Both the position numbers and the translations under genes were made by a program. 64,000 nucleotides of DNA from Eledone cirrhosa (lineage: Eukaryota), in assembly GCA_964016885.1 (NCBI GenBank), contig OZ024742.1:329282001-329346000 (forward strand), given 5' to 3'. The notes under the pieces are model-generated. The model made no database searches. It was not told where the DNA came from and was given only the letters and a program-made list of their open reading frames with translations. Below are positions 7,205 through 8,607 of the stretch, in pieces; positions within the stretch are counted from its first letter, which is position 1, and every line of letters starts with the position of its first letter.

Positions 7205-7701
7205 TGTCTATATTGTATCTGTATTATTTTTGACCGCCGGTCAGTCAATGGCAACATTGAGGACCGAGTAAGTTAGATCGCAGATATATATATATAAAAG
7301 ACAGCGAGAAGCGAAAACCAACCAAACAGTGAGTGTGTTCTGTTATTAATTCTGGCAATATTACGCAAATATGACCCTCCCCAAATATAACAATATCTGT
7401 TTCGACACACGATTTCATATAAAAAACCTCGCAAAACTAATTCATCGCCGCTATATATATATATGTATATATATATATATATATATATATATATATATGT
7501 ATATATATGTATATATATATATATATATATGTATATATATGTATATATATATATATATATATATATATATATATATATATATATATATATATATATATAT
7601 ATATATATATATATATATATATATATATACATTATGAAGAGAGAAGAAACATTTAGATATAATTAGTAATAAAATGTATCATACCTAAACTGCTCCTAAA
7701 T

Positions 7702-7789
7702 TCCTCGACTACGTAGTTTCGTGGCATAAACAAAAACAATATATCAAAGATATAGAGTCCTTGCGAGGTCTGCCGACTTATCAAGAGGA
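7702..7789 (-). ncRNA. Type I hammerhead ribozyme, U3-A8 core
   Basis: TCCTC-TTGATAA-GTCGGCA...TGCCAC-GAAA-CTACGTAG-TC|GAGGA; GUC site. Confidence 0.85.
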
Positions 7790-8291
7790 TACCTCATTTT
7801 ACTAGTCTCAAGAACGCGTCTACACGACGTGAGAAAGAATCCCAAAAGGCGGAGGGGGAGATAGTCACGCGATATAACGGTCGAGAAACAGAGCTAAGCC
7901 TCTTATAACCACGAAGAAAATACCACGGAGGCGGAGGGGGTATTCATATCGAGGCCGTAGAAGAGGTAGTGAAGAAGGCGAGAAGTATGAGTAATGGAAG
8001 CTTTCCAGTTGTCCCCACACTTCAAAGATTGCTCGACCAGAGGGAGTTATTAATATATTTAGAAACACACAGATACATGCGGACACACACATATATACAT
8101 GAATGCATCCGCACCCAACTGTGAGTTAAGGGTGCCAACTTCACCGATGTTGCTCAATGAATGACTGGGACAGACCAATTCAGTTGAACTAGACTGAACC
8201 AGTATCAGAGTTAAAAATACATTATGAAGAGAGAAGAAACATTTAGATATAATTAGTAATAAAATGTATCATACCTAAACTGCTCCTAAAT

Positions 8292-8379
8292 TCCTCGACT
8301 ACGTAGTTTCGTGGCATAAACAAAAACAATATATCAAAGATATAGAGTCCTTGCGAGGTCTGCCGACTTATCAAGAGGA
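8292..8379 (-). ncRNA. Type I hammerhead ribozyme, U3-A8 core (second copy)
   Basis: Same sequence as 7702-7789, 590 nt away. Confidence 0.85.
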
Positions 8380-8607
8380 TACCTCATTTTACTAGTCTCA
8401 AGAACGCGTCTACACGACGTGAGAAAGAATCCCAAAAGGCGGAGGGGGAGATAGTCACGCGATATAACGGTCGAGAAACAGAGCTAAGCCTCTTATAACC
8501 ACGAAGAAAATACCACGGAAGTTGGCACCCTTAACTCACAGTTGGGTGCGGATGCATTCATGTATATATGTGTGTGTCCGCATGTATCTGTGTGTTTCTA
8601 AATATAT

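Follow-up and report, generated by a model that had tools for sequence, protein, structure and literature searches.

How Penelope-like elements (PLEs) and animal retrozymes build insertions that are longer than one unit and partly inverted is an open question, and a locus of Eledone cirrhosa raises it directly. The locus lies in a stretch of 64,000 nucleotides, hereafter the window (contig OZ024742.1 of assembly GCA_964016885.1, forward-strand positions 329,282,001 to 329,346,000). A circular template was proposed earlier for such elements (PMC4209133 and PMC7229834, in their accessible parts). This is in conflict with the single PLE system available in vitro, that of the anole, where cleavage is dispensable and uncleaved RNA is the main substrate, according to the accessible text (PMC11167929).

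A preliminary description of the locus, made from the letters alone, reported 303 bp direct repeats that each hold an intact minus-strand U3-A8 hammerhead, together with a 90 nt inverted arm in a (TA)n setting, and read them as a young, non-autonomous element without coding capacity, mobilised by PLE machinery. The architecture is as it described. Self-comparison of the window gives direct repeats of 303 bp that are exact and 590 bp apart, the short inverted arm (8518-8607) being an exact 90-bp inverted copy of positions 8053-8142, all within (TA)n, and one type I hammerhead motif can be read in each repeat (Table 1). At the inversion junction the short and the long arm overlap by 2 nt. We number the monomer 1-590 from window position 8216 down to 7627, with the predicted cleavage between positions 510 and 511. 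The flanks of the insertion are (TA)n runs, which would mask any target-site duplication.

Table 1. Features of the retrozyme locus and of the adjacent PLE, in window positions.
Feature	Position	Strand	Basis or remark
Inverted arm of neighbouring PLE	3514..4974	-	ends at the proximal 3' site of that family
Neighbouring PLE, 5'-truncated, autonomous-type	4977..7452	+	ORF 4977-6875; RT, CX4CXXC linker, GIY-YIG
Left (TA)n target run	7452..7626	.	common to the 3' end of the neighbouring PLE
Long arm, 1.5 monomers	7627..8519	-	monomer positions 288-590, then 1-590
Long arm 3' end, fixed site A	7627	-	position 590, abutting (TA)n
Direct repeat copy 1	7627..7929	-	303 bp, exact
Type I hammerhead 1 (U3-A8 core, palindromic stem III)	7702..7789	-	predicted cleavage 7707^7706; sequence, pairing kept in 51 copies
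Monomer, predicted cleavage site to predicted cleavage site	7707..8296	-	590 nt, 41.7% GC
Direct repeat copy 2	8217..8519	-	upstream unit, 5'-truncated
Type I hammerhead 2	8292..8379	-	predicted cleavage 8297^8296; sequence
Short inverted arm	8518..8607	+	monomer positions 75-164
Short arm 3' end, fixed site B		+	position 164, abutting (TA)n
Right (TA)n target run	8608..8985	.	

As read from the sequence, the hammerhead has a stem I of UCCUC/GAGGA, the core UUGAUAA (carrying U3 and A8) and then GAAA and GUC, a stem II closed by the G10.1-C11.1 pair with a 57-nt branched insert, and a stem III made of the palindromic ACUACGUAGU, i.e. 3 bp and a 4-nt loop within a 10-bp palindrome; A9 and G10.1 have no extra base between them. 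Cleavage at both hammerheads is predicted to release 590 nt. Rfam gave no match at the gathering threshold within the window, so that the hammerhead call is based on sequence and pair counts. When 51 copies are compared, hammerhead pairing holds in 97% of cells. One pair of stem I varies among three states (U-A in 9, U-G in 25 and C-G in 17), and a two-sided change is seen in only one of the 27 pairs. RNAalifold on 24 monomers found two-sided changes in 10 of 157 pairs, mostly from a single split between old and young copies. Since the events are few and the copies related, covariation is supportive and not decisive.

The unit belongs to a very numerous family, not to a single-copy locus. A 21-nt core motif has 7,545 exact matches in the 3.0-Gb genome against none for its reversed control, and among the 101 BLAST matches listed 53 are full-length at 97-100% identity, in keeping with the young element that had been announced. 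The genome search that the preliminary description had suggested for tandem or permuted copies does find them, as dispersed arrays of 1-5 monomers each. The analysis covered 149 young insertions, in a first set of 88 (one local duplicate dropped) and a second of 61 (mostly picked as multi-hit arrays, one local duplicate pair kept), as well as 30 loci of an older subfamily (L264, L271-L330). With flanks of 1-4 kb, the sample amounts to about 180 insertions of several thousand. The older subfamily is about 80% identical to the young copies, has 220 exact matches of its own motif and shares with them the unit size, the fold and the end rule given below; young monomers are mostly 590-595 nt long, and those of the older subfamily measure 581-597 nt. 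The absence of coding capacity stands for the element as a whole but needs qualification, as young monomers hold a 75-aa sense ORF. This frame is missing from 12 of 12 old-subfamily monomers and a search with the antisense ORF returned no Pfam match of note (E 0.069), and we therefore rejected both the sense ORF and the antisense ORFs of 45-71 aa as conserved proteins. On its testable features the element is an animal non-LTR retrozyme, as far as the accessible parts of the defining papers describe one (PMC7229834, PMC7761336). Its type I hammerhead and its arrays of up to five whole units set it apart from the plant-type LTR retrozymes, in which type III hammerheads lie in two LTRs around a unique core.

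The insertions follow a strict rule at their 3' ends, which are fixed, whereas the 5' truncation of the arrays is variable. In the first set, a TA run adjoins 128 of 136 3' ends, and 130 of these 136 ends lie at one of two sites, A (586-590) or B (160-172), the fixed internal ends being position 590 for A and 164-166 for B. When the count is limited to head-to-head insertions in which each end belongs to one of these classes, the two arms use different sites, one A and one B, in 42 of 44 cases of the first set (4 more had an off-class end), in 35 of 35 of the second, independent set (6 off-class, one edge-cut and dropped) and in 19 of 19 of the old subfamily (3 off-class), i.e. in 96 of 98 overall against an expected half. 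Ninety inversion junctions were measured; 71 have an overlap of 0-11 nt, which is of 2-11 nt in 47. Our search of the open-access literature found no paper that reports such strict A/B pairing or tests the circular-template hypothesis.

The neighbouring PLE is a candidate helper family, present here as a separate insertion outside the retrozyme. Its family is very young (150 of 150 scored matches are 100% identical over 198 aa) and forms tandem monomers of 4,124 bp with a 1,216-codon open frame that encodes RT, CX4CXXC linker and GIY-YIG (L091 1236-9573), with a long asparagine-rich insert ahead of the RT. Its units are homogeneous within insertions too, and all of its 20 inverted insertions scored have one arm that stops 515-524 nt past the stop codon and one that stops 563-578 nt past it: this PLE follows the one-site-per-arm rule of the retrozyme. 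Because the (TA)n target, the insertion geometry and the youth are common to both, the retrozyme may well be tied to PLE machinery. Copy number, (TA)n ends and end pairing likewise support the non-autonomous element with PLE-type insertion that had been suggested. At the sequence level, the comparison of the retrozyme with the neighbouring PLE yielded only a low-complexity 33-nt match (E 0.004), and that with a second PLE family found no homology.

Several observations on PLEs may be recorded beside these. The neighbouring PLE has, by eye, a weak minimal hammerhead-like motif with a stem I of 2-3 bp (window 7145-7185). The second family (L242-L270; G000:C2:200830047-200836951) has an ORF of about 900 aa, a 3,127-bp period and, again by eye, a minimal hammerhead-like motif. 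Its two 3' ends into (TA)n are separated by about 45 nt, and one of them lacks TA-like microhomology. At one locus (L231 1518-4735) a retrozyme array is joined via about 5 nt of microhomology to a frameshifted 2.1-kb piece of this second family, the whole composite being flanked by (TA)n. It may be either an insertion into an older PLE copy or a template switch; we prefer the former and set the latter aside because the PLE piece is frameshifted and 4-6% diverged from its relatives and the retrozyme is young (99.3%). Another family that is PLE-related and targets TA is represented by head-to-head 3' fragments at window 11321-12436 and 39429-39947, the first with a canonical-looking minimal hammerhead (CUGAAGA...GAAA GAUCUA, by eye) near 12200.

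The units of one insertion are very similar to one another. Full units differ by 2.2 changes within arrays and by 13.4 between them (82 units, 47 insertions), and at 26 common polymorphic, subfamily-diagnostic sites the units of an insertion disagree in 14 of 2,319 tests, all of them at single sites, against 732 expected with random templates; between arms, the figure is 9 of 1,092. In addition, 33 variants are confined to a single insertion and carried there by every overlapping unit, in many cases on both arms (at C1:50595798, in 7-8 of 8 segments). The predicted cleavage site is crossed twice or more by 114 of 240 arms, the longest of which reach 2,907 nt, and 371 of 372 crossing segments carry no indel there.

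Among the mechanisms considered, rolling reverse transcription of a monomer circle would fit these patterns best. We judge it probable, with reservations, that the locus is an animal non-LTR retrozyme whose RNA is likely cut to monomer length by its predicted ribozymes, likely circularised and likely reverse-transcribed into (TA)n by a PLE enzyme. The proposed sequence of events is as follows: (i), a transcript with two hammerheads would self-cleave, probably slowly and after dimerising via the palindromic stem III. (ii), the monomer would be circularised by a host ligase. (iii), a PLE RT-endonuclease would nick both strands of (TA)n and cDNA synthesis would start at A and B, one per strand. 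(iv), each RT would pass round the circle up to about five times and, (v), the two cDNA ends would join, often via short microhomology, to give the inverted structure.

Folding predictions bear on the first two of these steps. Modelled as a circle, the monomer folds at -173.7 kcal/mol against -134.7 ± 6.5 in 60 dinucleotide shuffles, none of which is as stable (z about -6). The active hammerhead fold is predicted to lie 8 kcal/mol above the best fold of the circle and 6-13 kcal/mol above that of nascent fragments, and the isolated hammerhead fold has a z of -1. The stem III palindrome is predicted at +1.5 kcal/mol as a hairpin and at -12.9 as a dimer duplex. Given these stem III energies and the cost of the active fold, cleavage is probably dimer-dependent and slow; once circular, the RNA is predicted to hold its ribozyme in an inactive fold, and this would protect the circle. 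In the accessible part of a recent survey, one of nine constructs of predicted Xenopus retrozymes cleaved in vitro and eight did not (10.64898/2026.07.22.740005).

The template could instead be an uncleaved linear multimer of a noncoding family mobilised by PLEs, with a hammerhead that is a passenger or acts rarely. This agrees with the predicted disfavour of the active fold and, in the accessible text on the anole PLE, with insertion in vitro that is unimpaired by hammerhead mutants (PMC11167929), and an uncleaved multimer would likewise be free of scars at the cleavage site. However, a linear copy never exceeds its source and cannot spread the mutation of one unit to all the others. In the arms described above, every subfamily variant and all 33 private variants are shared by the whole set of overlapping units, so that a step from monomer to multimer must recur in the lineage. 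The hammerhead core is also less variable than the rest of the unit (minor-allele load of 0.4% vs 1.7%, in a sample partly selected by the core motif). We thus consider a linear multimer unlikely as the general template, though it deserves serious attention, and an individual insertion could derive from the uncleaved transcript of an already homogeneous array.

A monomer bottleneck would arise equally if the template were a cleaved linear monomer and the RT jumped from its 5' end to its 3' end, building multi-unit arms. End-to-end template jumps are known for R2-type RTs; such jumps usually add or lose bases at the junction, however, and jumps between molecules should mix subfamilies. Because the crossings are clean and subfamily mixing is nearly absent, template jumps are disfavoured and we regard this route as improbable.

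A unit that is the pseudo-LTR of a longer coding PLE, with copies that are its 5'-truncated fragments, would account for the inverted, tailed structure and the hammerheads that PLE ends also show, and in the accessible part of the Xenopus survey 24 of 57 retrozyme families match Repbase TEs, nearly all PLEs, at their termini (10.64898/2026.07.22.740005). Our sample covers about 180 of several thousand insertions. In that sample, however, the same-strand interval from hammerhead to hammerhead is 560-620 nt in 144 of 145 distinct cases (the exception is a local duplication), the 59 outer 5' ends show no upstream sequence that recurs among them, and no RT plus GIY-YIG ORF collinear with the unit was found. 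Adjoining units join directly, position 590 to 1, in permuted tandem arrays without LTR flanks, and the old subfamily is monomeric too. Given the uniform intervals and the lack of a recurrent upstream flank, the unit behaves as a free monomer rather than as a terminal part of some coding element; the longer coding PLE that the preliminary description had weighed against its own reading has left no sign in the sample, and we hold this explanation to be very improbable. Hardly more credible is an insertion of about one unit that grows later in DNA by unequal crossover or conversion, a route suggested for retrozyme arrays in the accessible part of the same survey (10.64898/2026.07.22.740005) and matched by 9 variants common to a subset of units: it is disfavoured because within-array differences are mostly single-unit (253 against these 9, at the same threshold), and private variants are common to the inverted arms of arrays whose ends are fixed and whose 5' truncation is variable.

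Returning to the monomer circle, it is tempting to speculate that each insertion represents one RNA circle read simultaneously by two PLE RTs, from A and from B on opposite strands, with ADAR-type A-to-I edits on that circle copied into all units of both arms; we consider this extended form possible but rather doubtful. A>G changes make up 10 of 33 all-unit private variants and 9 of 181 single-unit ones (p = 7e-5), with 6/12 vs 5/91 in the first set and 4/21 vs 4/90 in the second (p = 0.04). When two insertions are allowed, the all-unit A>G sites have a 5' U in 11 of 16 cases and a 5' G in none of 16, against a 5' U background of 32-38% and 4 of 13 at single-unit A>G sites; the 5' U excess and the absence of 5' G agree with the neighbour preference of ADAR. 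At the template level, however, A>G exceeded T>C in the first set (9 vs 2) and not in the second (4 vs 5), and the A>G excess could equally reflect selection for G-U wobble pairs. Since the asymmetry failed to replicate, editing of the retrozyme template is kept as a weak lead. We found nothing on point in the open-access literature for A-to-I editing of retrozymes, twin priming by PLEs or hammerheads of octopus PLEs, nor, since 2020, for a rolling circle in Penelope. If true, the extended form would amount to genomic evidence that PLE enzymes retrotranspose by a rolling circle. The 'tail at one end' of PLEs would then follow from an obligatory rule of priming at two sites on two strands, and RNA editing would contribute heritable variation to the retrozyme.

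Eight of 24 listed public sequencing runs were compared, each in the form of contigs and each of a kind that was guessed or unknown. A single contig of 620 or 621 nt, the monomer plus 30, came from each of two runs (X1, X2), as expected of a closed cycle; these contigs were rejected as evidence of circular RNA since tandem DNA or low-level carry-over of a high-copy sequence gives the same result. Run X3 resembles host DNA, with a summed depth of about 1e5 and loose ends in TA at both sites, A and B. Against window 7630-8519, six runs with other organism codes (X1, X2, X7, X9, X10, X13) hold low-depth sequence 99-100% identical to the monomer, and X9 also holds a diverged hammerhead variant. 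Monomer-like sequence in the runs of other organisms could stem from horizontal transfer, close relatives or contamination and carry-over, and was left out of the argument.

Other features were seen in passing. Palindromic fold-back repeat insertions stand beside (TA)n at window 2795-3324, 23579-23688, 38194-38390, 45947-46289 and 49076-49396, and such fold-back repeats recur elsewhere in the window. A dispersed repeat of about 200 bp, possibly a SINE, is found at 18049-18660, 25109-25305, 29319-29586, 39189-39333, 50083-50265 and 63879-63992, with 80-90% identity among copies. Multi-unit molluscan haemocyanin gene clusters lie at G000:C1:173.74-173.91 Mb and C26:21.93-22.02 Mb.

Comparison with known systems shows what is common and what is particular in this family, as far as these systems are described in the accessible parts of the cited papers. 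Neither the unit size nor the U3-A8 core is new. The preliminary description had stressed both: 590 nt falls inside the range of 51-972 bp of animal retrozyme units, for which a PLE origin has been argued (10.64898/2026.07.22.740005), and the U3-A8 core, correctly recognised, is also that of Schistosoma PLE hammerheads (PMC4209133). With the animal non-LTR retrozymes (PMC7229834; 10.64898/2026.07.22.740005) the family shares noncoding tandem units with a type I hammerhead each, a GC content under 50%, strong folding, thousands of copies, coexistence with PLEs and the size range. It differs from them by the U3-A8 core combined with a long branched stem II, by short arrays dispersed in (TA)n, and by head-to-head ends of PLE type and two fixed 3' sites. 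No homology to a PLE terminal repeat was found in the two PLE families compared here.

With metazoan PLE minimal hammerheads, including the U3-A8 variant of Schistosoma (PMC4209133), the retrozyme has in common the U3-A8 covariation, a 5-bp helix I and a palindromic helix III suited to dimers. It differs from these hammerheads in its helix III of 3 bp and 4-nt loop (10-bp palindrome), in the direct succession of A9 and G10.1 and in the 57-nt branched insert of helix II.

The closest parallel in insertion structure is with EN+ PLEs that have a CX2-5CXXC linker (Neptune/Nematis type, PMC8557442) and with the Poseidon element PAc of Anolis (PMC11167929). These share the partial-tandem and inverted, 5'-truncated structure, a tail at one end, which was already known for PLEs (PMC3846280, PMC8557442), two internal RT starts, AT-rich or (TA)n targets and a hammerhead in the repeat. 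In contrast to them, the retrozyme has no ORF and a tail of about 165 nt, vs 30-40 nt (43-58 nt in the neighbouring PLE). In PAc in vitro, two internal RT start sites yield the 'tail' without a difference between strands (PMC11167929), whereas the pairing described here is strict, with one site per arm. As a kind of element, the retrozyme is ordinary, and its value is that of a clean system for the mechanism of tandem and inverted PLE insertion: the family combines small size and youth with great abundance and polymorphism, and stands beside an active PLE with intact ORFs. Its homogeneous arrays, clean junctions and paired start sites can be counted as a genomic test, and a substrate and an enzyme are at hand together for bench work.
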